A stretch of 64,000 bases of DNA, from NCBI RefSeq assembly GCF_964213995.1, contig NW_027590122.1, positions 744,001 through 808,000 on the forward strand, given 5' to 3'. A model generated the notes under the pieces. It worked only from the letters and a program-made list of their open reading frames with translations. It searched no databases and was not told where the DNA came from. Shown one piece after another: positions 1-42,554 of this stretch. Source of the stretch: Mustelus asterias (taxonomy: Eukaryota). Positions within the stretch are counted from its first letter, which is position 1. Each line of letters starts with the position of its first letter. A program made the position numbers and the translations under genes.

Positions 1-575
1 CCGCCACGGCAGATGGTGGAATTTAAATTCAGTAAAAACATCTGGCATTAAGAATCTACTTATGACCATGATATCGTTGCCGATTGTGTAAAAACCTTTC
101 TGGTTCACTAATGTCTTTTAGGGAAGGGAATCTGCTGTCCTTACTTGGTCTGGCCTACATGTGATTCCAGAGCCACAACAATGTGGTTGGCTCTCAACTG
201 CCCTCGGATAAGAGGTGGGCCATAAATGCTGATCATTCAGCGGCACCCATGTCCATAGAATCCCTACAGAGCAGAAGGAGGCCATTTGGCCTATCGGGCC
301 CGCACCGACACCATTCTCTCCCAGGCCCTATACCCATCACCCCACGTATATTCCCTGCTAATTCCCTTGACACTATGGGACAATTTATCATCGCCAATCA
401 GCCTAAGCAGCACATCCTTGGATCGTATGAGTAAATAGGCAGACAATTGGAGAATGTGCATGCTCCACAGAGACAGTGACTCCACACAGACCCAAACCGG
501 TAATTGAGCCCGGGTCCCTGGCGCTGTGAGGCAGAAGTGCTAACAACTATGCCACTGTGCCTCCCACGAATGAAT
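1..575 (+). mobile_element. SacSINE1/DeuSINE-like SINE (5' part outside window), interrupted by an HE1 SINE at 254-561
   Basis: Body 'ggcagatggtggaattt...ctggttcactaatgtc...gggaagggaatctgctgtccttac...ccagagccacaac'; the tail 'cacccatgtc' resumes as 'tcccacgaatgaat' after the inserted SINE; the same family occurs at 18654 and 57948. Confidence 0.7.
254..561 (-). mobile_element. HE1-type V-SINE
   Basis: Reverse complement has a tRNA-derived head (ggcacagtggcatagttgttagcact...gggacccggg), a V-domain and a CR1-like tail (...ctgtagggattctatg). Confidence 0.8.
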
Positions 576-630
576 TCAAAAAAGAAAATCCTCATATGAT
601 ACAGTATTACACTTTATATTTCTCCAACAG

Positions 631-913
631 CTCCTTAACCCTGTGACAATTAGCGGTGAACGAAACCTGGTTGGCTTATAATTAATTGAGCTGGCAGAGA
701 AACAAAATTGAAATCGACTTTTGACAGAATTGAATAAATCAGGACGGACACAGCGATCAGGAAAGTTCTCCGTCAGCATCCAAATCATTGTAGCTCATCT
801 TATTGACCACCGGCTGTCTCACATTCACTGGTAGTGGGAGCACAGGACATCAGGACTTTGCAGCATATTGCACAATATCACAAGAGTAAATGCTTTATCT
901 TCCACAGAACCAG
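631..913 (+). pseudogene. Possible degenerate Ig C1-domain exon
   Basis: Polypyrimidine-AG acceptor at 629-630 and GT donor at 914; frames give LSWQRNKIEI...GKFSVSIQIIV...HIHW*WEHRTSG, resembling C1 strands, with multiple stops and frameshifts. Confidence 0.3.
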
Positions 914-3124
914 GTTATGAACTGGACATTTCTTCACAGATTGGCAGCTCTGAGAGGCACTGTTAAATAATCAAAATCAAATTATGCTGCACATTAGAAC
1001 ATGGTACTACTCAGGTACAAGAGACGTTGCCTTTCTAATGAGGGGCAGAAGACTGAGAATATTCCAGGAATCCGCGCTGTTCAAGGCAATTATATGACTT
1101 TATTTTACTTTTAATTATTTTCATTTTTGGGCCATTACACTGATCTCATTGGACTGAGGGATTGGGGACATCAAAATCTCTTTCCTGCACTTCATTGAAG
1201 TTGCTCACAAAGTGGCTTGAATTGTTGGAAGGACATTTATTTGTAAGTCATACAAATGAAATAGCACCCAGCCAATTGACTAGTTTCCGATACTGTTTAA
1301 TCACATAATCAACAGTGCATTCATTAAAAGTATTTGCTTGGAATGAATACCATTTAGAACGTGTCTTTCTTGTGGGAATCAGACATTTATTGCATAACTG
1401 GCTAAGTCCCATTTTATCCTTACATATTAACGTTAATCTGTCCACGCAGTGCTTGGCAGCGGTCCAACCTGCTGCCAAATATCCGAAAATATTTACAGGA
1501 AGCATCTGAGGGTGTTTGTTCAGAAACTCAAAGATCTGTTTCCTCAGTACTGAGCGCTTGGCTGCAAGCCAACTTCAAACTCTCAGCATTGTCAATGGGG
1601 CCTATTTATAAATAAATCTACCCAGCAACAGTACTGGAGGCAAGTTAATTATTTTTAATGTTGTAAACCTGTATGAATGTTTCCCATTGCTTTGGAAAAG
1701 AAAGTTTCCATCTTCTCTGGCTCCTTGTTAGCAACAATGACGATCTCTCCAACACAACAAAACACTGTGATCGATGGATAGAAATAAATACAGGCAGATT
1801 GTGAGAGTTGATTCAGAGAGGTGATATATCTTATACTGCATAAACATATATGCTTGTGTTTTATTTCACTTGATTCTTCCATGGGACGAGGGAGTCTCTG
1901 GAAAGACCAACATTTGTTTCCTGTGCTTAATTTATTTTCAACTGAGGGGTGTGCTCGGGCATTTCGGAAGGCATTGCCCAGTTACACATATTGCTGCCTG
2001 TCTGTAGTCACACCCTGGTGAGACCAAGTAGGGATGGCAGATTTCCTTGATTGGGGAATCAGAGAGGTTTATCTGGTCGCTGTAAGTATGAATCCAGATT
2101 TATTGATTGAAATCAAATTCCACCAGCTGCCATGGTCGGATTTAATCTCGTGTTCCCACATCACTGCACTGGGATTCTGGATTACTGCTCCACTGGCATT
2201 AATATTACGCCACCATCGACACAAGAAATAAATAAATGCCTGTGTTGATGCAGGGATGAACGATAGTTGGATACCTGAATGTTTTCATTGAGGAATCAGT
2301 GAATGGACTGATGGATGCGACGATAGCTGGTCCTGAAATTTGTTGTTCTACATTCGCTTACTTGTGTTTTGCTACTTCAAAAATCGAATCTAGTCCTTTA
2401 TTACAATTGTGTCAGTCTACAACCTTTAATCCTTCCAGATTTTCGGGGTGAATTCCATCCCCGGGATATCGGGAACAAATGAATTGAACCTCACTAAGAT
2501 TAGTCTGATTTTTCCCCATGTTGGTGGTAAATCTTCAAATCCAAAATGGAAAGAGGGAACATGATTAGGTTGATGAGGGAGGGTTGTAATATTTGGAACA
2601 TGTGGCCTTTCCAGTGCAACAAAATCACTCAACAGATCATCACCCAAATTAGTGAAGCCTAATAAATAAATAATGTGGCAACGAAAATATTGTGTAACTC
2701 ACTGGACAGCTTGAAGTTTTGAATTACTTTCCAGAACTGTGTAAAAATGAATCGGGATTTTTAAGCTCCTATAAATTCATATTAGATACAGATACTTTCA
2801 GTTATACAGCCATTATAAAAATGGTCACACATTCCAGTTATTTATCAGGAGTTTCTGTGTGATGATGAGGTGATTACTTGTAATAAAGCGTAGAGGCTGC
2901 TGGGTAGCTGCTACTATTTGGTCTGATTTAAATCAATTTCCCACTGAATTCTGAGGCAGATTTGATTCTTTCGTGACAGAAAGGCGAATGCTGTCTCAAT
3001 ACATTTGAATCTCAATGAATTGTACTAAATAAACTGAAATTATATTCGCATCAAATAAAATACTGACAATAATTGGTGAAATATTAATTAACTTTTGTGA
3101 ATTGAAGATTATTGGTAATATTAG

Positions 3125-4650
3125 CGCCAGGCAATGACCACCTCCAAAAAGGAGAATCTACCCATTGCTCCTTGTCACTCAATGATATTATGATACTGAA
3201 TCACCCACTATAAACATCGTCGGTGTTACCAATGGCTAACAAGAATATAAGAACATAAGAAGTAGGAGCAGGAGTAGGCCATCTAGCCCCACGAGCCTGC
3301 CCCGCCATTCAATAAAACCATGGCTGATCTGATAGTATGTTCCACTTACCCGCCCGCTCCCCATAACCCTTAATTCCCTTATTGATCAGAAATCTATCTA
3401 CCTGTGACTTAAACATATTGAACGAGGTAGCCTCCACTGCTTCAATGGGCAGAGAATTCATTCCAAAGATTCACTACCCTCTGAGAGAAGAAGTTCCTCC
3501 TCAACTCTGTTCTAAACTGACTCCCCCTTATTTTGAGGCTGAGTCCTCTCGTTCTTGTTTCCTTTCTAAGTGGAAAGAATCTCTCTGCCTCTACCCTGTC
3601 TAGTCCGTTCATTATCTTATATGTCTCTATAAGATCTCTCCTCAGCCTTCTAAACTCCAATGAGTACAGGCCCAATCTACTCAATCTCTCCTCATAAGCT
3701 AACCCCCTCATCTCCGGTATCAACCTGGTGAACCTTCTCTGTACTCCCTCCAAGGCCAATATATCCTTCCGCAAATAAGGGGACCAAAATTGCACACAGC
3801 ACTCTAGTTGCGGCCTCACCAGTACATTGTACAATTGTAGCAGGACCTGCCTGCTTTTATACTCCATCCCCTTCGCGATAAAGGCCAACATTCCATTTGC
3901 CTTCTTGATCACCTGCTGCACCTGCAAACTGATTTTTTCCGATTCATGCACAAGGACCCACAGGTCTCTCTGCACAGTAGCATGTTGTAATTTTTCATCA
4001 TATAAATAAGAGTCCATTTTACTATTATTGCTTCCAAAGTGGATAACCTCACACTTGTCAACGTTATATTCCATCCAGCTCCGGCTGGAAAATCAGGTCA
4101 GCCTGCTGTGAGTAACCCACCTCCAGACTCCCCAAACCTGTGCACCAACTACACGACATAAGTCAGGAGAGTAAAAGGGTTCTTTCCAGTTGCTTGAATA
4201 AGTGGAGCTCAAACAACATTCAAGAATCTTCATACCATTCAGGAATAAGCAGCCGGCTTGACTGGCATAGAATTTGAAAATGCTCACTCCCTCCACCACA
4301 GAGAGCAGTATGATGTACCATTTACAAGTTTCACTTCCGAAACTCACCAAGACTCCTTAGGCAGCAACTTCCAACCACACGACAGTTACCATCTGGAAGG
4401 ACAGGAGTAACAGTTACCAGGGAATATCACCTATAAATTCCCCTCCAAATCAGTCATATACCTGACTTGTAAACATATCGTCCTTCCTACACTGTCGCTG
4501 GATTGAAATCCTAGAACAGCACAGTGTGGGTACCTACACCACAGGTTCTGCAGCAATTCAAGCAGTTAGCTCATCACCAGCTTACTAAGGGCAATTAGGT
4601 ATAGGCAATAAATGCTGACTTAGCCAGCAACACCCATGTCCCTTGAATTA
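3125..4650 (+). mobile_element. Old CR1/L2-group LINE 3' fragment (shares its tail with the SacSINE1-like SINE), split by a CR1 at 3241-4074
   Basis: 'gccaggcaatgacc...aatcacccactat' resumes after 4074; ends 'aagggcaattagg...ggcaataaatgctg...cccatgtcccttgaat'. Confidence 0.6.
3241..4074 (-). mobile_element. CR1 LINE, 5'-truncated (C-terminal ORF2 plus 3' UTR)
   Basis: ORF 3442-4074 has CR1 ORF2 C-terminal motifs (CVQFWSPYLRKDI, LYSLEFRRLRRDLI); (ttcttatg)-type tail at 3241-3261. Confidence 0.92.
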
Positions 4651-4784
4651 AAACTTAAATGCATTAATGTTTATGAATGGATGATAACTTGTGAACAAAA
4701 TTGTGTAACTTTGTGAATGGATGGCAATTGGTGAAAATAAATACCAACTTTCTGAACATTTATGACCTTCTCTTTCTCTGCCAG

Positions 4785-5005
4785 AAGATAGGTTCCGTTC
4801 CACAGGAGATTCATGATTCAAAAACATCACACTATCCGAAGACAAGGCCGACAGAGGAGACGGCAACATCTGCAGCTGTATCTCAATCATAGCATCACGG
4901 GAAAGGCCTTTGATAGGATTACAATTTTGTTACTCGTCTGCTTGAAGACCGGGATTAACCTGAAGCACAGTGTTGTGCTTGTGTTGGAAGATATACGTAT
5001 CATAA
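4785..5005 (+). pseudogene. Possible degenerate connecting-peptide/transmembrane exon
   Basis: Strong acceptor tctttctctgccag; allowing two frameshifts it reads ...GNICSC...GKAL/IG.TILLLVCLKTGI.LSTVLCLCWKIYVS* (hydrophobic stretch with a central Lys). Confidence 0.25.
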
Positions 5006-5646
5006 CCATACTTTCGTGAATCGCAAGAAGATATTCGACACTCGCATCAGAGCAGAGACTGCAAGATTTGGGGGAACTAGGCTCTCCACCAAAACGTCCT
5101 CGGTCTCATTCATGACACACAAAACGACAATCTACAACCACACCTGATAGCGTCATGGGCAACACTTGCAGTTGAATCAACCTCTCAAAAGTTGTCCCCC
5201 TCAGTCATCAACAAATTTGACATATGCAAAAGAAACCAAACTGAAATGAATGTGTTTATTGTGTTTCTAAATTCTATTGTAAATGGAAGGATGCCGGTTA
5301 TCATTGTGACGTTGATTTGTAAACAATATGACATTTTTCCGACAACGCACGCAGAGGCACACACATATATTCTCTCTTGTTCTCATTCTGTCCCACAAAT
5401 TGTCTCCCTTTCATACGCACGTACACGTACAGAAATAGAAACACACACACACACTTTCCTTCAACTTAACACTCCATCTTGGCTTCCGAGGAATCACCTA
5501 ATCATCACACAGAAACTCCTGATAAATAACTGGAATGTGTGACCAACTATCTTTCAGATGGAACGATGAACAAATAAACTTTCCCCAACGCCATGTTTGC
5601 TGAGCTGGACGTTAAAGGACCCATGGTCTCCAACAGCGCCCTGGTC

Positions 5647-6836
5647 AACATCCCTCCTTTGGCGGCCCTCGGGCTGCGGTGAGGGAGGGCGATGGCGGCG
5701 GGTGCGGCCTGGTTCTGGGCGCTGCTGCTTGTCGTGCTGCTGAGCGGCGCTGCCGGGGAGGAGGAGCGGCCCAAGGCCGGCAAGAAGAAGAAGGACATCC
5801 GCGACTACAACGATGCCGACATGGCCCGACTGCTGGAGGAGTGGGAGAAAGATGATGATATAGAAGAAGGAGACCTACCAGAGCACAAGAGAACATCTCC
5901 ACCAATAGATTTTTCCCAAATTGATCCCAGCAATCCTGAAAACCTTCTAAAGGCAACCAAGAAAGGCAAGACCTTAATGATATTTGTGACAGTGTCTGGG
6001 AATCCCACTGAGAAGGACACTGAGGAGATCACCAGTCTTTGGCAAGGCAGTCTGTACAATGCAAATTATGATGTCCAGAGATTTGTTGTTGGTTCTGATC
6101 GTGCCATATTCATGCTGCGTGATGGAAGCTACGCCTGGGAGATTAAAGACTTCCTGATAAATCAGGATCGCTGTGCGGATGTCACTGTTGAGGGGCAAAT
6201 GTATCCTGGGAAAGCAGCAGAGAAAAAGAAGAATGAAACCAAGCCCGATAAGAAGAAGAAGAAAGAAGCAACGGTTTCCCAGAAAGACAACCGAGCAAAC
6301 AAAAACGAACTATGACACGGTTGAGTTAGAAAGATGGTGAAATGAACTTTTCTTTTGGTTTTGATTGCCTTTTGATGTTTGAGATTTTGGAGCTATTATT
6401 GAATCCATGATGCTGGATTTTTATAGCTCCAGGTTTTTGGGAGTGAGACTAATGTGAACTCCACCTAACATTCATTCCTAATATGAAGGCACTGCGTCAT
6501 CTTGTGCGTCGCGGTCTTTTAAAGGTACGAAAGGAAGTCTCCAGGTGCAGCTGTAGACTTTATAGATCATATTTGCTGCCTGTACCTTACACCTCAACAC
6601 AATAGGATTTCTCTTCATTTTGTTCTGATTTGCACTTCAATATAAAATGCAAGTTCCCTTTTGTGATTTAAGTACACTTTGACACAAAGACCATTATTTT
6701 CTATTGGTGCCTTTTTATAAGTAGTGACATTAATATGTTTCTAATTTCAAAATGAAATGATTGAAATTGCTGTCGGTATGGTCCACGTGTATTAAATTGA
6801 TTTTTGAGATGTTAAAAAAAAAAACATCCCTCCTTT
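5647..6836 (+). other. MESD: Retroposition unit of MESD mRNA: TSD - 5'UTR - CDS - 3'UTR - poly(A) - TSD
   Basis: aacatccctccttt at 5647-5660 and 6823-6836; ATTAAA at 6791-6796; A11 at 6814-6824. Confidence 0.93.
5692..6315 (+). CDS. MESD: LRP chaperone MESD (mesoderm development candidate 2), intronless processed retrocopy with an intact ORF
   Basis: 207 aa: signal peptide, KKKKDIRDYNDADMARLLEEWEKDDDIEEGDLPEH, KKGKTLMIFVTVSGNPTEKDTEEITSLWQGSL, FMLRDGSYAWEIKDFL, C-terminal KNEL ER-retention-type signal; no introns. Confidence 0.95.
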   Translation: MAAGAAWFWALLLVVLLSGAAGEEERPKAGKKKKDIRDYNDADMARLLEEWEKDDDIEEGDLPEHKRTSPPIDFSQIDPSNPENLLKATKKGKTLMIFVTVSGNPTEKDTEEITSLWQGSLYNANYDVQRFVVGSDRAIFMLRDGSYAWEIKDFLINQDRCADVTVEGQMYPGKAAEKKKNETKPDKKKKKEATVSQKDNRANKNEL

Positions 6837-6904
6837 TAACCAAAATGAACAAAAATGCATTACCATGGATTGAGCTATTTTGATCTGATGCTGATCTGGC
6901 AACA

Positions 6905-7300
6905 TCGGAACATAGCCGCAGGAGTAGGCCATTCAGCTCCTCGAACTCGCCTCGCCATTCAATAAGTTCATGGCTGATCTGTGGCCGAATACATGTACCT
7001 TCCCTCGGCCCATGTTGATACCCCTGTTCAATAAAAGAAAATCGATCTCAGACTTCAATCTAACAATTGAACCAGCACCCACCGGCGTCTGCGGAAGAGA
7101 GTTCCAAACATCCATCTCTCTCTGCGTGTACAAATTCTTTCTATTAACTCTCCTGAACGGCCTGTCCCTATTTTTTTTAAACTATGGCCCTTTATTCTCG
7201 AACTTTCAACGTGTGGAAACATTTTATCTTTATCTACCTTCCCTGTAAATATTTCATAGATTTCTATCAGAGCAGCCCTCAACCTTCTGAATTCGAGAGA
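6905..7300 (-). mobile_element. CR1 LINE 3' fragment (diverged)
   Basis: FSLEFRRLRAALIEIY (ORF 7055-7339) and the CR1 3' UTR 'ggcctactcctgc'. Confidence 0.8.
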
Positions 7301-7319
7301 AAAAGTCTTTTTTGGCTTT

Positions 7320-8125
7320 TTTGGAGGAAATAATAACAAATGGGATTACTATCTCAATGGAAACAAATTAAAACATGCTACCGTGCAAAGGGACCTGGGG
7401 GTCCTTGTGCATGAGACGCAAAAGCCCAGTCTGCAGGTACAACAGGTGATCAAGAAGGCAAATGGGATGTTGGCCTATATTGCGAAGGGGATAGAATATA
7501 AAAGCAGGGATGTCTTGATGCACCTGTACAGGGCATTGGTGAGGCCGCAGCTGGAATACTGTGTGCAGTATTGGTCCCCTTATATGAGGAAGGATATATT
7601 GGCATTGGAGGGAGTGCAGAGAAGGTTCACCAGGTTGATACCGGAGATGAGGGGTTTGGATTATGAGGAGAGGCTGAGGAGATTGGTTTTGTACTCGTTG
7701 GAGTTTAGAAGGATGAGGGGGGATCTTATGGAGACTTATAAGATAATGCGGGGGCTGGATAGGGTGGAGGCGGAGAGATTCTTTCCACTTAGTAAGGAAG
7801 TTAAAACTAGAGGACACAGCCTCAAAATAAAGGGGGGTCGGTTTAAGACAGAGTTGAGGAGGAACTTCTTCTCCCAGAGGGTGGTGAATCTCTGGAATTC
7901 TCTGCCCACTGAGGTGGTGGAGGCTACCTCGCTGAATATGTTTAAAGCGCGGATGGATGGATTCCTGATCGGTAAGGGAATTAAGGGTTATGGGGATCAG
8001 GCGGGTAAGTGGTACTGATCCACGTCAGATCAGCCATGATCTTATTGAATGGCGGGGCAGGCTCGAGGGGCTAGATGGCCTACTCCTGCTCCTATTTCTT
8101 ATGTTCTTATGTTCTTATGTTCTTA
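7320..8125 (+). mobile_element. CR1 LINE, 5'-truncated, young
   Basis: Uninterrupted ORF2 C-terminus 7383-8018; (ttcttatg)n tail 8096-8125. Confidence 0.93.
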
Positions 8126-8959
8126 ATTTGTCTGATCTCTCCTCGCAACTTGCGTTGAACTCCCTCCAGAGCCAACATCTTTCCAAAGATTTGTTGCCCA
8201 TGCCTGCTCACAGTACTCTTTTTGTGGTCTAACAAAGATTTTCACAATTGCAGTACAACATCTGCATCCCTATACTCCAGTCCTTTGGGTATGAAGACCA
8301 GCATTCCGTTGGCCTTAATGTCTATTTTCTGCATCAGTTCGTGGCATTTTGAGAAACTATGCGCCTGAAGCCCCAAATCTCGTTGGGCATCCACTAAATT
8401 TAATTTTGTGCCTTCTAAAAATACCTTGATCTATCATTTGGACATTTGACTTTTTATGCCATTATCTAAGCCATTAATGAATACTGTCAATAATTGAGGC
8501 CCCAAGACAGATTCCTGCGGGACAACACTTAAGCTGCATGATTCAGCAACGTACGTGTACAATTCGTTGCACCTTACAATTTGGCACCTTCCGCAGAAGG
8601 GGATGTGGTATTACATTAATGGATGTGAATTCGTGGTACATTCATATCATAGATCATACCTAACAGCGATATTTTCACAGTAACTGTAATTACAGAGTTT
8701 TGCCAGCAGATGGAAATGAAATCTTGATGGGTTACATTACATGACGCAATGAATGCCGCAATAAATACTACACTGGACCCTGTATCTGTTCATTTTGAAT
8801 TGACCTCCATATGTATCTATTTAGAATGGGCACAGTCTCTGATTATACTACATTATATTATATGGCACCCTGTTTAAACTAATATTGCACCAGTACATGT
8901 CAATGTATACATCACACAATCACTCTGATCCGAATATTTCCAGGAAGGATCAAACTTTG

Positions 8960-10790
8960 CAGTTCTGCCGCATGCAGTCCTGAATGGTGGTGGACATTCA
9001 AACAATTAACCGCAGCAGGAGCCTCAAATAAAACCCACATTCTTAATGATGTGGGACCTCAGCAAAGGGTAAAGAAACAAAACTGAAACAATTGCTACCA
9101 TCTCCAGCCGGAAGTGCCGAGAAGATGTTCCATCTCAGCCTCCTCCTGAGGTCCCCAGCATCACAGATGCCAGTTTCCAAGCAGTTCAATTCATTTCACA
9201 GTATAATATTGGAACAGGAATAGACCATTCAAGCCCTGGAGCCCGCTCCGCCACGCAATATGTTCATGATTGATCTGTGGCCTAACACTGTGCTGAAGGC
9301 TTTGGACACTGCAAAGGTTATTGGTCCTGACAATATTTCAGCAATAATAATGACGATGTGTGCTCTGGAGCTAGCTGCGCCCCAGCCAATCTATTCAAGT
9401 ATATACATCACGGTCACATACCCAACAGTATGGAAAATTGGCAGACATGTCCTGTCACGAAAAGCAGGGAAAATCCAATCCGGCCAATTATCGCCCAATG
9501 CGTCCTCACTCGATCAACGTAATAGAAAGTATCAAGGATCATCCGATCAGCAATAATAATAATAATCCGCTCAATGATGCTCTCTCTGGGTCCCACTAGG
9601 GGCACGCGGTTCCAGAAATCATTTGAACTTAGTCCAAATATAGTAGAAATAGCTGATTTAATAAGGTAAGGTGAGAGTGCCTGCCCTCGACAATAACGCA
9701 GCACTTGACTGATTATGGCATCAATAAGCCCGAGCGAAGCTGCAGTCAATGGGGATCCGGGGGTAAACATTCCACTGGCTTCAGTCAAACCGAACATAGA
9801 GTAAGATGGTTGTGGTTGTTGAAAGCCAATCATCTGAGTCACAGGGCTTTGCTGCAGGAAGTCCTCAGGATAGTGTGCTCGGCCTAATCTTCACCCTTCA
9901 TTGGAAGGTCAGAAGTGGGATGTTCACTAATGATTGCACAGTGTTCAGCACATTTGCGACTCCTCAGATACTGAAGCAGTCCGTGTCCATATGCAGCAAG
10001 ACTTAGAACACATTCAGGCTTTTCTGAGGATTAGAGAATAACATTCACGCCACACAAGTGGCAGGCAATGACCTTCTGCAAGTAAGAGAGATTCCAAACA
10101 TCTCCCTTTGACACTAAATGGCATGACGACGGCTGAAACCCCCACTATCATCATTCTGTGAATTACCGTTGATTAAAAACTGAACTGGGCAACCATGTAA
10201 AAAATATTGCGACAAGGACATGTCAGACGCTGGGAATTTTGTGTTGAGTCACTCACCCCTTGACTTCTCAAACCCTCTCCATCATGTACAGGGCAAAGGT
10301 CAGGAGTCTGATTGAATGTTCTCCACTTGTCTGACGTGTGACCCTGAAGCAACACCCAAATATCTCGAAACCACCCAGCAAAAAGCAGGTTGCTCGATGA
10401 ACGCCCCACACACCACTTGAAGCATTCACTCTCTGCATCACAGATGTACAACTCCAGTAGTGTGAACTATACACAACTTGGAGAGCGGCAACATAATCCT
10501 TCGATAGCACCTTCCAAACACATTCATTCTGATACTTAAAACGACAAGGGCAGCAGATGCACGAGAACACAATTACCTGCAAGTGCCCATAAAACCCACA
10601 CGCCATCTTGACTGTATATTTCAGTGTCAATGGATGAAAACCTTGTAACTCCCTTCCTGTCAGCACTGTGCGTGTATTTACTCTGTGGAATTCAATGGCT
10701 CGAGAAGAGTGCTCACCACTACATTCTCAAAGGGAAAAACGAAGTGGCAACAAATGCTACTTTACCAGTGACACAAAAATCTCATAAAAT
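8960..10790 (+). mobile_element. Degenerate CR1/L2-group LINE (RT region to 3' end)
   Basis: Fragments KALDTAKVIGPDNI, AGSPQDSVLG (PQGSVLG) and GMFTNDCTVF (FADD); same family as 3125-4650. Confidence 0.7.
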
Positions 10791-11002
10791 AACTTTAAAC
10801 ATATCATATCTCTGCTTATATTCAATTAACCCCCATTTCTGTTTGTATTGAAATAGGCCATGTCTCGATCACATTACAACATGTCTTATCTCCGTTATTT
10901 CCCTACTCGGCTCATTATCAGTTGTTCCGACAAGAAGCCAAGGCCCTACTTCGACGATAGTTTCTGAGTTATGACTGTGCTGAACTATGTTTCAGTTAAT
11001 AC

Positions 11003-11307
11003 GGGCGGCACGGTGGCACAATAGTTATCACTGCTGCCTGATAGCACCAGGGACCCGGTTTCAATTCCCAGCTATGGTGACTGTCTGTGTGTCGTCTGCA
11101 TGTTCTCCCTGTGTCTGGGTGGGTTTCATCCGGGTCCTCCGGTTTCCTCCCACAGTCCGAAGGACGTGCTGTTTAGGTGCATTTTGGCCATGCTAAATTC
11201 TCCCCTAAATTCTACCCGAACAGGCGACTAGGGGATTTTCACAGTAACTTAATTGCAGTGTTGATGTAAGCCTACTTGTGACACTAACAAATAAGCTTTA
11301 AAACTTT
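11003..11307 (+). mobile_element. V-SINE with HE1 head and an alternative (non-CR1) 3' tail
   Basis: gggcggcacggtggcac...gggacccggtttcaattcc head and V-domain; tail ggattttcacagtaac...cctacttgtgacactaac. Confidence 0.8.
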
Positions 11308-11449
11308 AATCTGGCTGTGTCTCAATTCCTACTGCATCACAGCATTTATCTGTGTATACTAAACTGAAACAACATTCTTACATTACAAATGTTTCGGTCA
11401 CAGTATTTGCTTGAATAGTTCATTACATCAAATTAACTCGATCTTGTTT

Positions 11450-11910
11450 TAGTTAGAACTTGCCGTATGAGGAACGTTTGAGGACTCTGGGTCTGTACTC
11501 GATGGAGTTAAGAAGAATGGGGGGGTGGATCTTATTGAAACTTGCAGGATACTGCGAGGGCTGGATAGAGTGAACATGGAGAGGATGTTTCCCCTCGTAG
11601 GAAAAGCTAGAACCAGAGGGCACAACCTCACGCTGAAGGGGTGATCCTTTAAAACAGAGATGAGGAAAAATGTCTTCAGCCAGAGAGTGGTGAATCTGTG
11701 GAACTCTTTGCCATAGCAGGCTGTGGAGGCCAAGTCATTGAGTGTCTTTAAGATAGAGTTAGATAGGTTCTTGATTGATAAAGGGATCAGGGGTTATGGG
11801 CAAAAGGCAGGAGAATGAAGATCAGAAAAGTATCAGCCATGATTGAATGGCGGAGCAGTCTCGATGGGCCGAGTGGCCCATTTCTGCTACTATGTCTTAT
11901 GGTATGGTCT
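11450..11910 (+). mobile_element. CR1 LINE 3' fragment
   Basis: YEERLRTLGLYS-type coding remnant, CR1 3' UTR and 'tatgtcttatggt' tail. Confidence 0.85.
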
Positions 11911-12478
11911 TAATGCTGCATCAGTCCATGTATGTGTTTATTTCATCCTGACTCTGCCTACATTTAATGCGACCAGGTCACTGTTATTAATGCACTAGAT
12001 TATGCCTCTGTTCGAATTATGGTCGCATTACTCTACGGTTCTGTGAGGAGGAGAGATAATACAATACATAAATATGCTGTGCTAAAAACATCTGTATTCA
12101 GCAGGATCCTGAAACAGAAACTATTGGATCGACAGTGCATCCAGCGCAGGGTTTGATATCTACTTGCAATACAGTCAGCAGAATTGCATTTCAGATATCA
12201 CTTCTTCCAGTGCCCAAGACCAGTCTCCATCCCAGAGAGTTGTGTCTGTCGGAGGATGCAGAGAAATGTGTTCCCCCAGCCACTTTTCACATTATTGCAC
12301 CTTGTCTAGCGCAGTAATAACTGAGTCCGTGCCCAATATAAAATGAACGTGGACATAGTCAAGTGCAGAACTAAGACCGCATCCAGTTTAGTACAGAGAC
12401 AGGTCTACATTAATAGAAGCAGAGTCACTGTCGAGCTTAATGTAAACAGAGATATGGTGACGTTTTTTCTTGCTGGTA

Positions 12479-13408
12479 ATGGCTTCAGGGATGGCAGTTC
12501 AGGCAGTATGCTGCATCTCCTGTGGGATGTATGTGGTGAGGAAATCCAGTAGTGTTTCAGGAGATTTTAGTTGTAAGAAGTGCATTAGATTGCAGCTTCT
12601 GGAGGAGCGTGTAAAGGAGCTGGAGGGGGAGGTAGAGGAACTCCGCATAATTCGGGAGGCGGAGGTGGAAGTTGATAGGAGTTATAGAGAAATAGTAACT
12701 CCTAGAAATGAGGCTTGGGTCAATGCCAGGAGGAGGGGTAAGAAGCAATCGGGAAGACAATCCCCTGGGGCGGTTCCCCTCCATAATAGGTTTTCGGTGC
12801 TGGAGGCTACAGTTGAGGAGGAATCAACTGAGCATAGAGAGCAGATCTCTGGGGGTGAGCCGAGTGAGAAAGCTCAGGTGGTTAGGGGCTGTAAAAGACT
12901 GGGCCTTGTGATTGGGGACTCCACAATTAAGGGGACAGATAGGAGGGTCGGAACTAAAGGTAGGGACTCAGGGTTGGTGTGTTGCCTACCAGGGGCTGGG
13001 GTCCGGGATGTGTCTGACAGGGTATTCAGGACTCTTAGGGGGGAGGGAGATAAACCACAAGTTATTGTACATGTGGGGACACACGACATAGGGAGGATAG
13101 GGGAAGGGGATATTAGGCAGGGATTTATGGAGTTGGGGTGGAAACTAAAGGCCAAGACTGACAGAGTGGTTATCTCTGGACTCTTGCCTGTACCACGGGA
13201 TAGTTTAGAGAGGAATAGGGAGAGGGAAGGTTTGAATTCATGGCTGAGGGGATGGTGCAGGAGGGAGGGGTTCAGGTACTTAAGCAATTGGGGCTCGTAC
13301 TGGGGAAGGTGTGACCTCTATGAGAAGGATGGTCTACACCTTAATCAGAAGGGGACCAATATCCTGGGGGGTATATTTGCTAAGGCCATGCAGGGAGGTT
13401 TAAACTGA
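12479..13408 (+). CDS. CR1 ORF1p (CxxC..CxxC zinc finger, coiled coil, SGNH esterase-like domain)
   Basis: CISC...CKKC, LQLLEERVKELEGEVEEL, VIGDS, CLPGA, VHVGTHD, DGLHLN motifs; first ATG at 12479. Confidence 0.92.
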   Translation: MASGMAVQAVCCISCGMYVVRKSSSVSGDFSCKKCIRLQLLEERVKELEGEVEELRIIREAEVEVDRSYREIVTPRNEAWVNARRRGKKQSGRQSPGAVPLHNRFSVLEATVEEESTEHREQISGGEPSEKAQVVRGCKRLGLVIGDSTIKGTDRRVGTKGRDSGLVCCLPGAGVRDVSDRVFRTLRGEGDKPQVIVHVGTHDIGRIGEGDIRQGFMELGWKLKAKTDRVVISGLLPVPRDSLERNREREGLNSWLRGWCRREGFRYLSNWGSYWGRCDLYEKDGLHLNQKGTNILGGIFAKAMQGGLN

Positions 13409-13460
13409 TTCGGGGGGGGGGGGAGGGATCCTGAGTAGTGGGGCTGAAAGTGAGGGATGC

Positions 13461-16280
13461 ATGGATGGGGACTGCAATGCACGGCATTGCAGAGGTGGGG
13501 TGGAGCAGGGTTTGAAATGTGTATACTTCAATGCCAGGAGTATTCGCAATAAAGTGGGTGAACTTGCAGCGTGGATCAGTACCTGGGACTTCGATGTTGT
13601 GGCTATTTCAGAGACATGGATAGAGCAGGGGCAGGAATGGATGCTGCAGGTCCCGGGGTTCAAATGTTTTAGTCGAAGTAGGGAAGGAGGTAGAAGAGGG
13701 GGAGGGGTAGCATTATTGGTCAGAGATTGTATCACAGTGTCAGAGAGGAGGTTTGATGAGGACTTATCTGTTGAGGTAGTATGGGCGGAGATTAGAAATA
13801 GGAGAGGAGAGGTCACCCTGTTGGGAGTCTTTTATAGACCTCCTAAAAGTTCTAGAGAGGTTGAGGAAAGGATTGCGGAGTCAATCCTGCTTAGGAGTGA
13901 AAGTAATAGGGCAATTGTTATGGGGGATTTTAACTTGACTAATATTGACTGGAATTGTTATAGCTCTAGCTCGTTAGAGGGGTCAGTTTTTGTTCAAAGC
14001 GTGCAGGAAGGTTTTTTGACTCAGTATGTAGACAGGCCAACTAGAGGTGAGGCTATATTGGATCTGGTGCTGGGAAATGAGCCAGACCAGGTGCTAGACT
14101 TGGACGTTGGTGTGCATTTTGGTGATAGTGACCACAATTCGGTTACGTTCACCTTAGTGATGGAAAGGGATAGGCATGAACCTCGGGCCAGTGGTTTTAG
14201 CTGGGGGAAGGGTAATTATGAGGCTATTAGGAGAGAATTAGGAAACATAGGTTGGACTAGGAGATTACAGGGACTGGGAACGTCCGACATGTGGAGTTTT
14301 TTCAAGGAGCAGCTACTGCGAGTCTGTGATAGGTATGTCCCTGTCAGGCAAGGAGGAATTGGTAGGGCTAGGGAACCGTGGTGCACCAAAAAAGTTTCTT
14401 TGTTGGTTAAAAAGAAAAAGGAGGCTTATGTTCGGATGAGACGTGAGCACTCGGGTAGTGCACTAGAAAGCTTTAGATTGGCTAAGAGGGAGTTGAAGAG
14501 CGAGCTTAGAAGGGCTAAAAGGGGACATGAGAAGACTTTGGCGGATAGGGTTAAAGAGAATCCTAAGGCGTTCTATAGGTATGTCAAGAACAGAAGGTTG
14601 GTTAGGGCAAGTTTAGGGCCAGTTATAGATGGCAGAGGGAAGTTATGTGTGGAACCGGAGGAGATTGGTGAAGCATTGAACCAATATTTCTCTTCGGTGT
14701 TCACGCAAGGGGACATGAATATAGCTGAGGAGGACACTGGGTTGCAAGGGAGTAGAATAGACAGTATTACAGTTGATAAGGAGGATGTGCAGGATATTCT
14801 GGAGGGTCTGAAAATAGATAAATCCCCTGGTCCGGATGGGATTTATCCAAGGATTCTCTGGGAGGCAAGAGAAGTGATTGCAGAGCCTCTGGCTCTGATC
14901 TTCAGGTCGTCGTTGGCCTCTGGTATAGTACCAGAAGATTGGAGGTTAGCGAATGTTGTCCCATTGTTTAAGAAGGGGAACAGAGACTTCCCCGGGAATT
15001 ATAGACCGGTGAGTCTCACTTCTGTTGTCGGCAAGATGTTGGAAAAAATTATAAGGGATAGGATTTATAGTTATTTGGAGAGTAATGAATTGATAGGTGA
15101 TAGTCAGCATGGTTTTGTGGCAGGTAGGTCGTGCCTTACTAACCTTACTGAGTTTTTTGAGAAAGTGACCAAGGAGGTGGATGGGGGCAAGGCAGTGGAC
15201 GTGGTATATATGGATTTTAGTAAGGCGTTTGATAAGGTTCACCATGGTAGGCTTCTGCAGAAAATGCAGATGTATGGGATTGGGGGTGATCTAGGAAATT
15301 GGATCAGGAATTGGCTAGCGGATAGGAAACAGAGGGTGGTGGTTGATAGTAAATATTCATCATGGAGTGCGGTTACAAGTGGTGTACCTCAGGGATCTGT
15401 TTTGGGGCCACTGCTGTTTGTAATATTTATTAATGATCTGGATGAGGGTATAGTTGGGTGGATTAGCAAATTTGCTGATGACACCAAAGTCGGTGGTGTG
15501 GTAGACAGTGAGGAAGGGTGTCGTAGTTTGCAGGAAGACTTAGACAGGTTGCAAAGTTGGGCCGAGAGGTGGCGGATGGAGTTTAATGCGGAGAAGTGTG
15601 AGGTAATTCACTTTGGTAGGAATAACAGATGTGTTGAGTATAGGGCTAACGGGAGGACTTTGAATAGTGTGGAGGAGCAGAGGGATCTAGGTGTATGTGT
15701 GCATAGATCCCTGAAAGTTGGGAATCAAGTAGATAAGGTTGTTAAGAAGGCATATGGTGTCTTGGCGTTTATTGGTAGGGGGATTGAATTTAGGAGTCGT
15801 AGCGTTATGTTGCAACTGTACACAACTCTGGTGCGGCCGCACTTGGAGTACTGTGTGCAGTTCTGGTCCCCACATTACAGGAAGGATGTGGAGGCTTTGG
15901 AGAGGGTGCAGAGGAGGTTTACCAGGATGTTGCCTGGTATGGAGGGGAGATCCTATGAGGAGAGGCTGAGGGATTTGGGATTGTTTTCGCTGGAAAGGCG
16001 GCGGCTAAGAGGGGATCTTATTGAAACATATAAGATGATTAGAGGTTTAGATAGGGTGGATAGTGATAGCCTTTTTCCTCTGATGGAGAAATCCAGCACG
16101 AGGGGGCATGGCTTTAAATTGAGGGGGGGTAGTTATAGAACCGATGTCAGGGGTAGGTTCTTTACCCAGAGGGTGGTGAGGGATTGGAATGCCCTGCCAG
16201 CATCAGTAGTAAATGCGCCTAGTTTGGGGGCGTTTAAGAGATCCGTAGATAGGTTCATGGACGAAAAGAAATTGGTTTAG
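13461..16280 (+). CDS. CR1 ORF2p (APE endonuclease plus reverse transcriptase), 939 aa, uninterrupted
   Basis: YFNARSI, ISETW, MGDFN, SDH (endonuclease); NYRPVSLTS, QHGF, DFSKAFD, PQGSVLGPLLF, FADD (RT). Confidence 0.96.
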   Translation: MDGDCNARHCRGGVEQGLKCVYFNARSIRNKVGELAAWISTWDFDVVAISETWIEQGQEWMLQVPGFKCFSRSREGGRRGGGVALLVRDCITVSERRFDEDLSVEVVWAEIRNRRGEVTLLGVFYRPPKSSREVEERIAESILLRSESNRAIVMGDFNLTNIDWNCYSSSSLEGSVFVQSVQEGFLTQYVDRPTRGEAILDLVLGNEPDQVLDLDVGVHFGDSDHNSVTFTLVMERDRHEPRASGFSWGKGNYEAIRRELGNIGWTRRLQGLGTSDMWSFFKEQLLRVCDRYVPVRQGGIGRAREPWCTKKVSLLVKKKKEAYVRMRREHSGSALESFRLAKRELKSELRRAKRGHEKTLADRVKENPKAFYRYVKNRRLVRASLGPVIDGRGKLCVEPEEIGEALNQYFSSVFTQGDMNIAEEDTGLQGSRIDSITVDKEDVQDILEGLKIDKSPGPDGIYPRILWEAREVIAEPLALIFRSSLASGIVPEDWRLANVVPLFKKGNRDFPGNYRPVSLTSVVGKMLEKIIRDRIYSYLESNELIGDSQHGFVAGRSCLTNLTEFFEKVTKEVDGGKAVDVVYMDFSKAFDKVHHGRLLQKMQMYGIGGDLGNWIRNWLADRKQRVVVDSKYSSWSAVTSGVPQGSVLGPLLFVIFINDLDEGIVGWISKFADDTKVGGVVDSEEGCRSLQEDLDRLQSWAERWRMEFNAEKCEVIHFGRNNRCVEYRANGRTLNSVEEQRDLGVCVHRSLKVGNQVDKVVKKAYGVLAFIGRGIEFRSRSVMLQLYTTLVRPHLEYCVQFWSPHYRKDVEALERVQRRFTRMLPGMEGRSYEERLRDLGLFSLERRRLRGDLIETYKMIRGLDRVDSDSLFPLMEKSSTRGHGFKLRGGSYRTDVRGRFFTQRVVRDWNALPASVVNAPSLGAFKRSVDRFMDEKKLV

Positions 16281-16377
16281 GTTGGAGGGTCACAGTTTTT
16301 TTTTTAACTGGTCGGTGCAACATCGTGGGCCGAAGGGCCTGTTCTGCGCTGTAATGTTCTATGTTCTATGTTCTATG

Positions 16378-16540
16378 TGTAATATAAACAGAGACAGCAT
16401 CTAGTTTAGTATAAACAGAGAGCACATCTCGTGTAATATGAACAGAGACACAACGTTCTTTAATATAAACTGACGCAGAGATTAGTTAATTTAGCATCAG
16501 CAGACCAGGATCACAGACGAGTGCATTATAGAGACAGGGC
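16378..16540 (+). repeat. Degenerate ~30-bp tandem repeat (consensus like ctagtgtaatataaacagagacag); continues on the other side of the CR1 at ~12310-12460
   Basis: Recurring 'taatataaacagagac', 'tagtataaacagagag', 'taatatgaacagagac'. Confidence 0.65.
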
Positions 16541-24408: not shown

Positions 24409-27400
24409 CATAAGAACATAAGAACATAAGAAATAGGAGTAGGAGTAGGCCATCTAGCCCCTCAAGCCTGCTCCGCCATTCAATAAGATCATGGCTGATC
24501 TGATAGTGGGTTCAGTTCCACTTACCCGCCCGCTCCCCATAACCCTTAATTCCCTTAATGGTTAAAAATCTATCTATCTGTGACTTAAACACATTTAACG
24601 AGGTAGCCTCTACTGCTTCATTGGGCAGAGAATTCCAAAGATTCACTACCCTCTGGGAGAAGAAGTTCCTCCTCAACTCTGTTCTAAATTGACTCCCCCG
24701 TATTTTGAGGCTATGCCCCCTAGTTCTTGTTTCCTTAATAAGTGGAAATAACCTCGCTGCTTCTACCCTGTCTCGCCCCTTCATTATCTTATATGTCTCT
24801 ATAAGATCTCCCCTCAACCTTCTAAACTCCAATGAGTACAGGCCCAGTCTACTCAATCTCTCTTCATAAGCTAACCCCCTCATCTCCAGAATCAACCTGG
24901 TGAACCTTCTCTGTACCCCCGCCAAAGCTATTATATCATTTCTTAACTAAGGGGACGAAAGTTGTACACAGTATTCTAGGTGCGGCCTCACCAGTACCCG
25001 CTACAGCTGCAGCACGACCTCCCTGCTTTTATACTCCATCCCTCTCGCGATAAAGGCCAACATTCCATTTGCCTTTTTGATTACCTGCTGCACCTGTAAA
25101 CTGAGTTTTTGTGATTCATGCACAAGAACCCCAGGTCCCTCTGCACAGTACCATGTTGTAATTTTTCACCGTTTAAATAATAGTCAATTTTACTATTATT
25201 CCTTCCAAAGTGGATAACCTCACACTTACCAACGTTATACTCCATCTGCCAGATCCTTGCCCACTCACTTAACCTATCCAAATCTCTCTGCAGACTCTCT
25301 GTGTCCTCCACGCAATTTGCTTTCCCACTCATCTTTGTGTCATCCACAAACTTTGTTACCCTACACTCGGTCCCCTCCTCCAGATCGTCTATGTATATGG
25401 TAAATAGTTGAGGCCCCAGCACCAATCCGTGCGGCACGCCACTAGTCACTGATTGCCAACCGGAAAAGCACCAATTTATTCTGACTCTCTGCTTTCTGTT
25501 AGATAGCCAATCCTCAATCCACACTAATACTTTACCCCCAACTCCGTGTACCTTTATATTACGCAGCAACCTTTTGTGAGGCACCTTATCGAATGCCTTC
25601 TGGAAATCTAAATACACCACATCCACCGGTTCCCCTCTGTCAACCGCACTCATTATATCCTCAACAAATTCCAGTAAAGTAGTCAAACATGACTTTCCCT
25701 TCATGAATCCATGCTGCGTCTGCTTGATTAAACCATTTTTTTCCAGTTGTCCTGCTATTTCTTCCTTAATGATAGATTCCAGCATTTTCCCAACTCCGGA
25801 TGTTAAGCTAACCAGCCTGTAGTTACCTGTCTTTTGTCTACCTCCTTTTTTAAACAGTGGCGTTGCATTAGCTGTTTTCCAATCAGCTGGCACCTCCCCA
25901 GAGTCCAGTGAATTTTGATAACTTACAACTAACGCATTTGCTATTTCTTCTGCCGTTTCTTTTAGTACCCTGGGATGCATTCCATCTGGACCAGGGGACT
26001 TGTGTACCTTTAGTCCCATGAGCCGACCCAGCACTACCTCTTTAGTAATAGTGATCGTTTTAAGGTCCTTACACCCTACAGTCCCATGACCGTCAATTAT
26101 TGGTAAGCTATTTGTGTCCTCCACTGTGAAGACCGACACAAAAACCTTGTTTAAGGCCTCGGCCATTTCCTCGTTTCCTATTATTAAATCCCCCTTCTCA
26201 TCTTCTAAGGGACCAACACTTTCGCCATTCTTTTCCGTTTTATATGTTTGTAAAAACTTTTACTATCAGTTTTTATATTTTGTGCTAGTTTACTTTCATA
26301 ATCTATCTTTCCTTTCTTTATTGCTTTCTTCGTAGCTTTTTGCTGTTTTTTAAAGCTTTCCCAATTTTCTAGTTCGCCACTAATTTTGGCCTCTCTGTAT
26401 GCATTTGTTTTTAATTTGATACTCTCCTTTATTTCCTTGGTTATCCATGGCTGGTTATCCCTTTTCTTACATTCCTTCTTTTTCACTGGAATATATTTTT
26501 GCTGAGTCCTGAGAAAAATCTCCGTAAACATCCTCCACTGTTCCTCAACTGTCCCTCCAATTAGTCTGTGTTCCCAGGCTACATTAGCCAACTCCGCCCT
26601 CATCCTTTTGTAATCCCCCTTGTTCAAGCAGAGGACACTGGTTTGGGACGCTACTTTCTCACCCTCCATCTGTATTAGAAATTCAACCATATTGTGATCA
26701 CTCATTCCAAGAGGATCCCTCACAAGGAGATCATTAATTTTACCTGTCTCATTACACAGGACCAGATCCAAGATAGCTTGCCCTCTTTTTAGGTCAAACC
26801 AAATAAACAAACTTAGATTAAGTCAGGACAAAGTAAAAGGGGCAGCTCCCCAAAAGGGGGGGGGGGGCGAGGAACAGCCAGAACAGAAATCAAAGTACAA
26901 AGGAAACTTAAAAACATCAAATTAAAATGTGATTATTAGGGTCGATAACGCACCCCAACCCCTGCGGTGTCCAGCGGGCGCGGAAGGCGTCAACCATGCC
27001 CGTGGACACCCGGGGACACCGCATGCTCCCTCTCCAGGGATACCCGGCCGCGAACGTAGCCACGGTAGAGGGGAAGACAGTCAGGATGGACGGCCCCCTC
27101 GATCGCCCGCTGCCTGGACCGATAAATGGCGGGTTCCGCCAGGCCCAGGAGCAGGTTCACGAGGAGGTCGCCATCCCGACCCTCCCCTCTCCGCACCGGG
27201 TGTCCGTAGATCAGGAGTGTGGGACTGAAGTGCAAACAGAACATCAATAAAAGGTTCTTTAGGAAAACATAAAGGGAGTGCAGCCGAAGACACACAACAT
27301 AGACATGGTCCACGGACTCCACAAGGCCACAGAAAGGGCAGCCTTCGGATCCCGTGAACCAGTGAATCCTACGGTTGTGCGGCACTGCTGCATGCATCAC

Positions 27401-27580
27401 CCTCCACCCCAGGTCCAAGATAGCTTGCTCCCTCATAGGTTCTGTAACATACTGTTCGAGGAAACTATCGCGACAGCATTCTAAGAACCGCGTCCGACTT
27501 GAGTTAACCAATCAATATGGAGGTTAAAATCCCCCATGATTATTGCTGTTCCATTTTTACATGCATCTGTTATTTGTTTA
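24409..27580 (-). mobile_element. CR1 (inner element), endonuclease-to-3' end, frameshifted, interrupted by a Tx1 fragment
   Basis: (ttcttatg)n tail at 24409-24432; ORFs 24512-24925, 25081-26166 and 26205-26810; MGDFN at ~27530. Confidence 0.92.
26782..27408 (-). mobile_element. Tx1/L1-clade LINE 3' fragment (C-terminal CCHC zinc knuckle of ORF2) with a ~20-bp TSD
   Basis: WRVMHAAVPHN...CPFCGLVESVDHVYVVC...LLVNLLLGLAEPAIYRSR; flanked by ccagatccaagatagcttgc (26762-26781) and ccaggtccaagatagcttgc (27409-27428). Confidence 0.85.
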
Positions 27581-30062: not shown

Positions 30063-30135
30063 AGATTCCAGTGAGAATTGAACTCGCGACCCCTGGTTTA
30101 CAAAGCCAGTGCTTAAACCACTGAGCCATGGAGCC
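30063..30135 (-). tRNA. tRNA-Thr(TGT), probably a pseudogene
   Basis: GGCTCCATGGCTCAGTGGTTTAAGCACTGGCTTTGTAAACCAGGGGTCGCGAGTTCAATTCTCACTGGAATCT; 73 nt, with one mismatch each in the acceptor, D and anticodon stems. Confidence 0.8.
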
Positions 30136-40226: not shown

Positions 40227-41056
40227 TTGATCACTTTCCGAACATCAGAGTCTCCTTTTGCAGAAAGTGACAATTTGTTGATACGAAAATGGGCGGAGAA
40301 CATAAATCCCATCCAATCACATTGCATCTTCCCGGTTCTTTTGATTCAACCTTTAACTTCAATACATTTATTTAACTCAAATGTCCTCGTTCTGAATAGA
40401 ATATCTCTGAAATAGAGAACATTGAATTGCAAGCATGACTGACCAACAAAAGAAAGCGAGTCACTGGGGAATACACATCCCATGGTACCTTTTTGAAATT
40501 GACCGCAGTCAGCTTTCAAACAAAAGCAAATATCTTTCAAGGGAAGAGATTTAAGAATGATCTGTTAGTTATAGTTGATCCTTCTTTATTCTGTGTGTGA
40601 AACATTCTGGCGCTTAAATATCTTTCATCTACAGGAGGCCCAGCAAGTCCGCACTGATTCTCCATTTCCTCATCTACCTGAATGGTATTTCCTACATCTT
40701 TATTAGGAAGAACAATTTTAAAAATAAGCTTCGAAGCAATGTGTGCCATTTCCTCTAGTTCAGTTACAGTTTCACTTGTGTCTGTCCTTATGAGCATGCA
40801 TTGCTGTTCGACATGTTTCAGATGGTGATTAAAGCTCTTAGTCTTCACCTGTAAACGCATTAAATTTTATTGTGGACTGAACGGGTTGCGAATATAACAA
40901 GACAAACATTTATTTCCTGACATTGCATCCTAAAACACAGAAATTCTGATTTTCCGAAAGGCAATTGAGTTACTGTAAGATCCGATTTTCCGAAAAGCAT
41001 TTGAGTTGATGTAACATCGAGATTCACATAATGTTGAGCAATGATGGTTACACGGT

Positions 41057-41361
41057 GGGGTTCGGCACAGTGGCACATTGGTTAGCACTGCGGTCTCACA
41101 GAGACGACCTGGGTTCGATTCCTGGCTTGGGTCACTGTCTGTGTTGAGTTTCCACGTTCCCCCCGTGTTCCCCGGGTCCTGGTTTCCTCCCACAGTCCAA
41201 AGATGTGCAGGTGAGGTGGATAGGCCATGCTAAATTGCCCCTTAGTGCCGGGGGGCGAGGTAGGTAAATACATGGGGTTATGGGGATGGGGCCTGGGTGG
41301 GATTGTGTTCGGTGCAATCTCGATGAGCCGAATGGCCTCCCTCTTCACTGCATGATTCTAG
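41057..41361 (+). mobile_element. HE1-type V-SINE
   Basis: Head, V-domain and tail. Confidence 0.85.
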
Positions 41362-41412
41362 GAAGTTAAACCATGCAGGCTTCGCACTCCCTTAATAAGA
41401 ATGGTCCAAAAG

Positions 41413-41485
41413 TGCTTCTGCCGGGTTTTGATACGGGAAACTTTCACGTGTGAGGCGAACGTGATAACCATGACATTACATGAAC
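41413..41485 (-). pseudogene. tRNA-Val(CAC) pseudogene
   Basis: GTTCATGTAATGTCATGGTTATCACGTTCGCCTCACACGTGAAAGTTTCCCGTATCAAAACCCGGCAGAAGCA; T-loop broken. Confidence 0.8.
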
Positions 41486-42554
41486 AGCTGACCGCATATT
41501 TTAGCTAATCGGCCTGCCTGCAATGTCCAACTGCGCTGCGCTGCTGCAGATTCCAATGGTTAGACTGAGAGCCCATGTCACTGAATTCAAGAAGAAAACC
41601 GGTATTTTCAACCTGATTTCTCAACTTATCTTGAACATCAAAATTTAAAAGCTTTCGTTTGGCAAATATCGAAGTGAGCACTGATTCTGCCCATTCATTA
41701 ATGCATCATTTTCATCTTCCTTCGAATAATCTCAACAAATTGTAATCAAAAAGTAAATTACTGCGGATGCTGGAATCGGAAACCAAAAGAGAAAATGCTG
41801 GAAAATCTCACAATGTCTGACAGCTCCTGTTAGGAGAGAAAAGGGCTGACCTTTCGAGTCCAGATGACATTTTGTGAAAGCTCATTGAGCACTTGGACTC
41901 AGTATTTGTTTTATGATTCAATATTTAGTATCAATACATTATTTAACACATATGCCTTCATTATGAATTGAATATCTCTGGAATTGAATATCACTGAAAT
42001 TGCAAACATAACTGACCAACAGAACGAATCGAATCACCGGGTAATACAGATCGCAATTTTGAGGTTGATCATAACCAGCTTTTAAACAAAGTCAACTACG
42101 TTTTAAATGGAAGTGATTCAAGAATTAACTGTTCGTGGCCTTTTTTTATTATGGGCGTGAGATATTCAGGCGCATAAATTCCGGCCATTTATAGGAAGGT
42201 CCAGAAGATCTGCACTGAGTCCCGATTCTCTCATCTGTTTGAGTGTTTTTTTTTCTATTTCTTTGTTGTGAAGAACGATTTTTTAAAAGAATCGTCTGGG
42301 AAATGAACGCCATTTCTGATAGATCACTTACAATATCACTTGTGTCAGTCTTCTGGAGTAGACACTACGATTAGAAACGTTTCATTCTTGTCAGTGCATC
42401 AAAAAAAAGTCAGCATTTCTTATTTTACAGAAAACATTGGAGGCTGATGTCAGAGCAACAATAATATGCCTGTAATATTGAGGTTCAGATAATGTTGAGA
42501 AACGAACTGAAATCATGCAATTTTCCTTCACGCGACATGAGAAAGCTGAATGAA

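Follow-up and report, generated by a model that had tools for sequence, protein, structure and literature searches.

In our opinion, positions 5647 to 6836 of the window, by which we mean the whole 64-kb stretch of DNA analysed here, are very probably a processed copy of a spliced MESD mRNA that was moved in trans by a non-LTR enzyme binding poly(A). The product has the anatomy of mRNA retroposition; the enzyme is what we infer. Within this explanation we favour, with some reservation, an enzyme of the L1 clade, which in a shark would most likely mean a Tx1-type family. The copy itself is probably a neutral processed pseudogene whose open reading frame has not yet been hit.

The insertion would have proceeded as follows. 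A spliced and polyadenylated MESD mRNA would have been captured in trans by the ORF2 protein of a non-LTR retrotransposon through its poly(A). The bottom strand would have been nicked at 5'-TGTT/GA and the poly(A) used for priming (target-primed reverse transcription), reverse transcription would have run to a point 31 nt upstream of the ATG, and a second nick 14 bp away would have given the 14-bp duplication.

Anatomy of the MESD copy

All parts of the copy lie on the forward strand. It begins with the left target-site duplication of 14 bp (5647-5660), an exact match of the right one (6823-6836). Next to it is a remnant of the 5' UTR of 31 nt (5661-5691; GC 84%, 4 CpG), from which the MESD mRNA appears to have been copied in full length or nearly so. 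The coding sequence starts with codons 1-52 (5692-5847), a hydrophobic leader and putative signal peptide that runs to LLEEWE, and continues with codons 53-207 and the stop codon (5848-6315), ending in KNEL. An AT-rich 3' UTR of 498 nt follows (6316-6813), with the polyadenylation signal ATTAAA at 6791-6796, 17 nt upstream of an A11 run (6814-6824) that we regard as the poly(A) remnant and whose final two A's also belong to the right duplication. This signal is the sole AATAAA or ATTAAA from the stop codon to 6836.

The ORF at 5692-6315 is continuous and intronless, encodes 207 amino acids, and matches the Pfam family Mesd with E=5e-77; its best PDB match is 2kgl. Its N-terminus is hydrophobic (Kyte-Doolittle maximum of 2.75 for 11-mers, starting at residues 7-8), and its KNEL C-terminus is common to 11 of 13 elasmobranch MESD orthologues. 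The protein thus resembles the MESD/Boca chaperones of LRP receptors (PF10185; PDB 2kgl, 2kmi, 3ofh) in the full Mesd domain, the hydrophobic leader and the KDEL-like end, whereas the copy differs from the genes of that family in being intronless. An earlier note on this DNA had listed the intronless 207-aa ORF with a signal peptide, KNEL and ATTAAA; the ORF, KNEL and ATTAAA are confirmed, and the N-terminus is hydrophobic, as that of a signal peptide would be. The A11 run and the perfect 14-bp repeat of that note are likewise both present, but two of the 11 A's lie also within the right repeat, so that the free tail measures 9-11 nt.

The copy bears these marks of a processed retrocopy: an ORF continuous across WE|KDDD, poly(A) after a poly(A) signal, and target-site duplications at both ends. 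In the 3' UTR we found no tail of CR1 or of another repeat, and blastn at E<=1 gave it no match elsewhere in the window.

One detail of the 3' junction may be mentioned separately. The sequence GATGTT at 6808-6813, just before the A-run, is the exact reverse complement of the start of the duplication (6823-6828), so that the body of the mRNA and the priming strand had identical last six bases. This six-base complementarity is probably due to chance, and a rearrangement at the junction could account for it as well.

Loss of introns and base composition

In mouse, the Mesd gene is divided into three exons, and exon 1 encodes the signal peptide and the N-terminal helix (PMC3790828). The whale-shark MESD model P0030 has 37 unrelated residues at its start and then enters the MESD frame exactly at KDDD, which points to a splice point there in a shark orthologue. 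The earlier note likewise gives vertebrate MESD as a multi-exon gene. The first 37 residues of P0030 partly resemble the CR1 ORF of the window and the true first exon is absent, so the start of this model is likely a mis-annotation.

The composition of the copy changes at the same place. The CpG observed/expected ratio reaches 0.89 at 5692-5846, whereas the remainder of the coding sequence has 0.41 and the window 0.54. The best change point in GC falls at 5845, with 5847 as the runner-up. The maximum-likelihood change point in GC3 is codon 53, the lysine of WE|KDDD, with codons 46-54 lying within two log units, and GC3 is 42/47 before codon 53 against 64/150 after it (Fisher p=9e-9). Hence the CpG-rich 5' part with an abrupt change near WE|KDDD, to which the earlier note had drawn attention, is real. 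Since the change coincides with the splice point of the whale-shark gene, the CpG-rich part is best read as the CpG-island first exon of the parent, carried over into the copy. Codons 53-207 would represent former exons 2 and 3, fused. The junction between these two presumably lay near 6080/6081 (VQR|F), a position that we take from the mammalian gene. In a search with short MESD pieces, 89 of 237 candidates matched; most of these were unnamed proteins, identity did not exceed 92%, and we draw no evidence from them. The four named proteins among the matches carried no information on shark exons.

The target-site duplication and the insertion site

The 14-mer of the duplication occurs only twice in the window, both strands considered. 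Under an order-2 Markov model its chance is 9e-9 per site, which for 100 candidate positions upstream of the ATG amounts to about 1e-6. Exact direct pairs of at least 14 nt spaced 0.5-3 kb apart are not rare in the window (n=53), and in the MESD pair only is the repeat preceded by an A-run. Conversely, among the 12 A-runs of at least 8 nt in the window, the one at the MESD copy has the longest upstream duplicate (14 nt); the next best, of 12 nt, belongs to a duplicated array at 41-48 kb. The proposal of an mRNA retroposition with intact coding sequence and low divergence is supported.

When the empty site was rebuilt, its only matches were a CR1-type 3' end at 6901-6981 and an inverted repeat of 57 bp. 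The target was therefore unique DNA, with a repeat tail some 65 bp away. The two arms of the inverted repeat (2822-2878 and 5489-5545) are 96% identical and 2.6 kb apart, with no Pfam match inside, and the second arm ends 100 bp upstream of the retrocopy. They could represent the termini of a DNA transposon or the product of a local inversion.

Which enzyme made the copy

The earlier note saw in the copy the signature of an L1-clade enzyme rather than of CR1, and our results agree with it: the copy has no CR1 tail, and the window contains a Tx1-like element with a duplication of its own. This element is a 5'-truncated L1-clade fragment on the reverse strand (26767-27428), lying within the endonuclease region of a CR1-type element. 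Its duplication has an exact core of 15 bp, about 20 bp if one gap is allowed, and it ends in A5. When translated, the fragment does not resemble the CR1 ORF2 (best E=3.3). At E<=0.001 we found 149 relatives of it; several of these are long proteins in which the match lies at the C-terminus, as at 1131-1256 of 1291 amino acids. The fragment itself matches zf-RVT with E=0.055. Among the long relatives found, P0210 is the closest, at 73% identity; it has RVT_1 and zf-RVT matches, both below the curated Pfam cut-offs. All five PDB matches of P0210 are of the LINE-1 ORF2p type at E about 1e-6, four being so named and one called 'RNA-directed DNA polymerase'; the corresponding C-terminal part of the window's CR1 ORF2, used as a control, had no PDB match. 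Judging from the fragment and P0210, the host genome appears to possess an L1-clade enzyme. The subgroup name Tx1 is our assumption, made from sequence motifs and in view of the report of Tx1 in whale shark.

An L1-clade element is the likeliest kind of donor, while the fragment in the window is not itself tied to the MESD insertion; this one Tx1-like copy of the window sits in a target sequence other than that of the MESD copy. According to PMC4494074, Tx1 families can have their own targets, and the Tx1 of crocodilians is inferred there to trans-mobilise the poly(A)-tailed SINEU. In whale shark, PMC8455134 reports Tx1 and no full LINE1; for Chondrichthyes, PMC5203782 reports L1 fragments only.

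A rather doubtful competitor, which nevertheless survives better than the others, is that a CR1/L2-group or RTE enzyme took up a host mRNA, as it may do occasionally. Such elements are far more abundant than Tx1 in sharks, CR1-group elements covering 22-34% of elasmobranch genomes according to PMC13343379. The window itself contains an open endonuclease-RT ORF of 958 amino acids at 13404-16280. Further, RTE elements make long duplications (16-19 bp for those of hagfish in PMC7245038), and the nick site TGTT/GA is a poor match to the L1 consensus TTTT/AA, agreeing at 4/6 positions and offering two T's only in the primer. On the other hand, what the CR1-type copies of the window have at their ends is a 7-8-nt microsatellite, (TTCTTATG)n or (ATGTTCT)n, rather than poly(A), and the MESD copy has neither a CR1-type tail nor a microsatellite end. 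CR1, moreover, usually leaves short target-site duplications or none. The combination of LINE tail and microsatellite at the 3' end is the mark of the stringent CR1/L2 type, and its absence from the copy argues against the stringent types CR1, L2 and RTE. Both the CR1 and the RTE clade are listed as stringent, and L1 as relaxed with recognition of poly(A), in PMC4176376 (see also PMC3747384).

We rejected an LTR-mediated retrocopy. As described in PMC5131818, such copies have discontinuous LTR-element sequence on their flanks and lack poly(A) and target-site duplications; here both of these are present, and the flanking ORFs have no retroviral domain.

Comparison with other retrocopies

The mammalian L1-type processed pseudogenes, as presented in PMC5131818, are like the MESD copy in the loss of introns, the poly(A) remnant after a signal, the target-site duplication and the lack of linkage to an LTR. 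They are unlike it in their host, since the MESD copy resides in a cartilaginous fish, a group with only L1 fragments on record in the two reports cited above (PMC5203782, PMC8455134). The copy also departs from them in its nick, with 4/6 positions of TTTT/AA, and in showing no 5' truncation into the coding sequence. The crocodilian SINEU and Tx1-Mar (PMC4494074) offer the parallel of a poly(A)-tailed RNA with no LINE-derived tail that is attributed to a Tx1 enzyme. In contrast to the MESD copy, which is a single copy of an mRNA and has no target in common with the Tx1-like element of the window, SINEU are described there as multicopy families that derive from snRNA and prefer the same target as their Tx1.

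Retrocopies abound in cartilaginous fishes. A VGP survey of 244 genomes (bioRxiv 10.64898/2026.06.26.734816) counts 14,081 of them in this group; 95.7% are species-specific, and an ORF is present in 15.7%. It names CR1 or Tx1 as responsible, on the strength of a correlation only. With such numbers the MESD copy is little surprise; it belongs to the same class, distinguished by a complete ORF and both insertion scars, and a single processed MESD copy is ordinary. The main text of that survey has no mention of MESD, of TSD or of 'target site', although its per-species supplements may still list the MESD copy. Our literature search returned no report of a shark MESD retrocopy or of shark retrocopy junctions, which is weak evidence as such supplements fall outside its coverage. 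General background is given also by the VGP Phase I preprint (10.64898/2026.06.24.732306) and by PMC5381603.

What makes clean young retrocopies of this kind useful is the question of which LINE makes the retrocopies of sharks, where CR1 is dominant and intact L1 is reported to be absent; PMC5131818 calls the elements responsible outside mammals unidentified. A bolder reading, which we hold to be less likely than not, is that a shark Tx1-type enzyme with relaxed, mammalian-style recognition of poly(A) still makes full-length mRNA retrocopies, and that the MESD copy is very recent and possibly segregating. If this is true, the 14-bp duplication and the TGTT/GA nick are a nucleotide-level fingerprint by which the responsible family can be named.

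Relatives, parent and age

The 12 best protein matches after the protein itself are from sharks and rays, at 84-92% local identity (85-92% to shark and 84-90% to ray MESD). In a protein tree of 16 rows, for which the whale-shark row was trimmed to its MESD part, the window protein goes with Cetorhinus at 82/78, and 0 of the 13 inner branches are strongly supported; on this evidence the host is probably a shark. For the test of invariant columns, the whale-shark row and three bony-vertebrate rows were left aside. None of the 126 columns invariant in 13 chondrichthyans is changed in the window protein, and only one of the 141 invariant in 12 elasmobranchs (K76Q). When ordinary elasmobranch orthologues are left out one at a time, they show 0-4 changes at otherwise invariant columns. 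Residues private to the window protein among the 13 chondrichthyans are F8, E25, Q76, M170, K191 and E192, which may be changes of the species or of the copy.

In simulated neutral decay, the ORF, the invariant columns and the duplication all stay intact with a probability of 0.15 at 0.5% divergence, 0.055 at 0.75% and 0.018 at 1%. Given that 0/126 invariant columns are changed, the neutral divergence since the insertion is below about 1%. We had considered the perfect duplication as proof of a very recent age and dropped it, because a perfect 14-bp duplication alone survives with a probability of 0.57 at 2% and still of 0.24 at 5% divergence. 'Recent' as used in the earlier note holds only in terms of substitutions, which in sharks can stretch over millions of generations. 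With the mutation rate of 7e-10 per base per generation given for the epaulette shark in PMC10587355, 1% corresponds to about 14 million generations, and a low divergence does not show that the copy is polymorphic.

For the exact 207-aa protein the listing gives 2 contigs, the longest of 63 Mb. For the other elasmobranch rows (P0002-P0013 and P0030) the listing is on 1 contig in 11 of the 12 that give a count; one row gives none. The double listing is suggestive only: it fits a parent encoding an identical protein, and two assemblies, haplotypes or species would also produce it. Most likely, the genome has an intron-containing MESD parent at another locus. Should its protein be identical to that of the copy, the two loci could be taken for each other in annotation and read mapping.

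Is the copy a functional gene?

At the divergence found here an intact ORF is expected even with no selection, which makes a neutral copy the default. It is unlikely, in our opinion, that the copy is instead an expressed retrogene that adds to MESD dosage under purifying selection and is possibly older than it appears. Such a gene would have as its putative promoter either the CpG-rich 5' part of 187 bp (5661-5847; GC 0.71, CpG o/e 0.88) or a borrowed one, and the intact ORF, the good start context and the lack of any change at the invariant columns of the chondrichthyans would all suit it. But the perfect duplication, the clean A-run and the retained CpGs are all in keeping with a copy that is simply young, and youth accounts for the intact ORF with no need of selection. 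Nor did a Pfam scan of the 91 non-repeat ORFs in 1-13000 reveal a neighbouring gene there; two had a match, both weak and below the cut-off (E 0.03-0.04). Moreover, a transcript coming from upstream meets a pair of in-frame ATGs (5593 and 5623) in an ORF that stops at 5680-5682. A bacterial promoter scan, a method not suited to shark DNA, found nothing.

It is very unlikely that the species has lost the parent and is left with the retrocopy as its only MESD gene. The protein does look like an ordinary orthologue, its single change at the otherwise invariant columns of the 12 elasmobranchs falling within their own range of 0-4. Yet the unmutated duplication and A-run imply a recent source mRNA, and the same protein is listed on two contigs. 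MESD is, further, essential in mouse (PMC3790828), which makes us think that a promoterless copy would hardly replace it quickly. An assembly artefact, or a contaminating cDNA joined into the contig, is hardly credible, as a misjoin would not duplicate 14 bp of unique flank exactly at the start of the 5' UTR and after the poly(A).

Surroundings of the copy

The earlier note suggested that the copy, possibly an expressed retrogene, stands at the edge of an immune locus. The window does hold three TCR alpha/delta-type V-like segments on the forward strand (50552-59474), but the nearest is 43.7 kb away and no link to the retrocopy was found. The first (about 50552-50870) is frameshifted, with a 23-spacer RSS-like site at 50871. 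The second (about 57500-57770) is broken. The third (about 59150-59435) is open, with a 23-spacer RSS-like site at 59436; it has a V-set domain, and all nine non-scFv PDB matches in its top ten are TCR alpha chains. Two further RSS-like sites, at 54744 and 56762, have 12-spacers, but we identified no segment beside them, and a motif scan of the window for J segments found none.

Repeats detected by self-BLAST cover 42% of the window. Much of the self-matching DNA belongs to a LINE with a GDSL-esterase ORF1, an endonuclease-RT ORF2 and microsatellite 3' ends, which on the grounds of this architecture we take to be of CR1 type. A near full-length element of this type on the forward strand (12461-16380) has both its 315-aa GDSL esterase and its 958-aa endonuclease-RT ORFs open and an (ATGTTCT)n tail, and is possibly a young copy. 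A unit of about 2 kb is duplicated several times at 70-83% identity (40335-48200 and 60840-62690), with inverted copies near 61-62.7 kb. There is also a G-rich tract of 234 bp (55298-55531), located inside a repeat that recurs at 63017-63389, which by its sequence could form G-quadruplexes. Finally, two tRNA-like Rfam matches on the reverse strand (30063-30135 and 45288-45360), both far from the retrocopy, are possibly the heads of SINEs.
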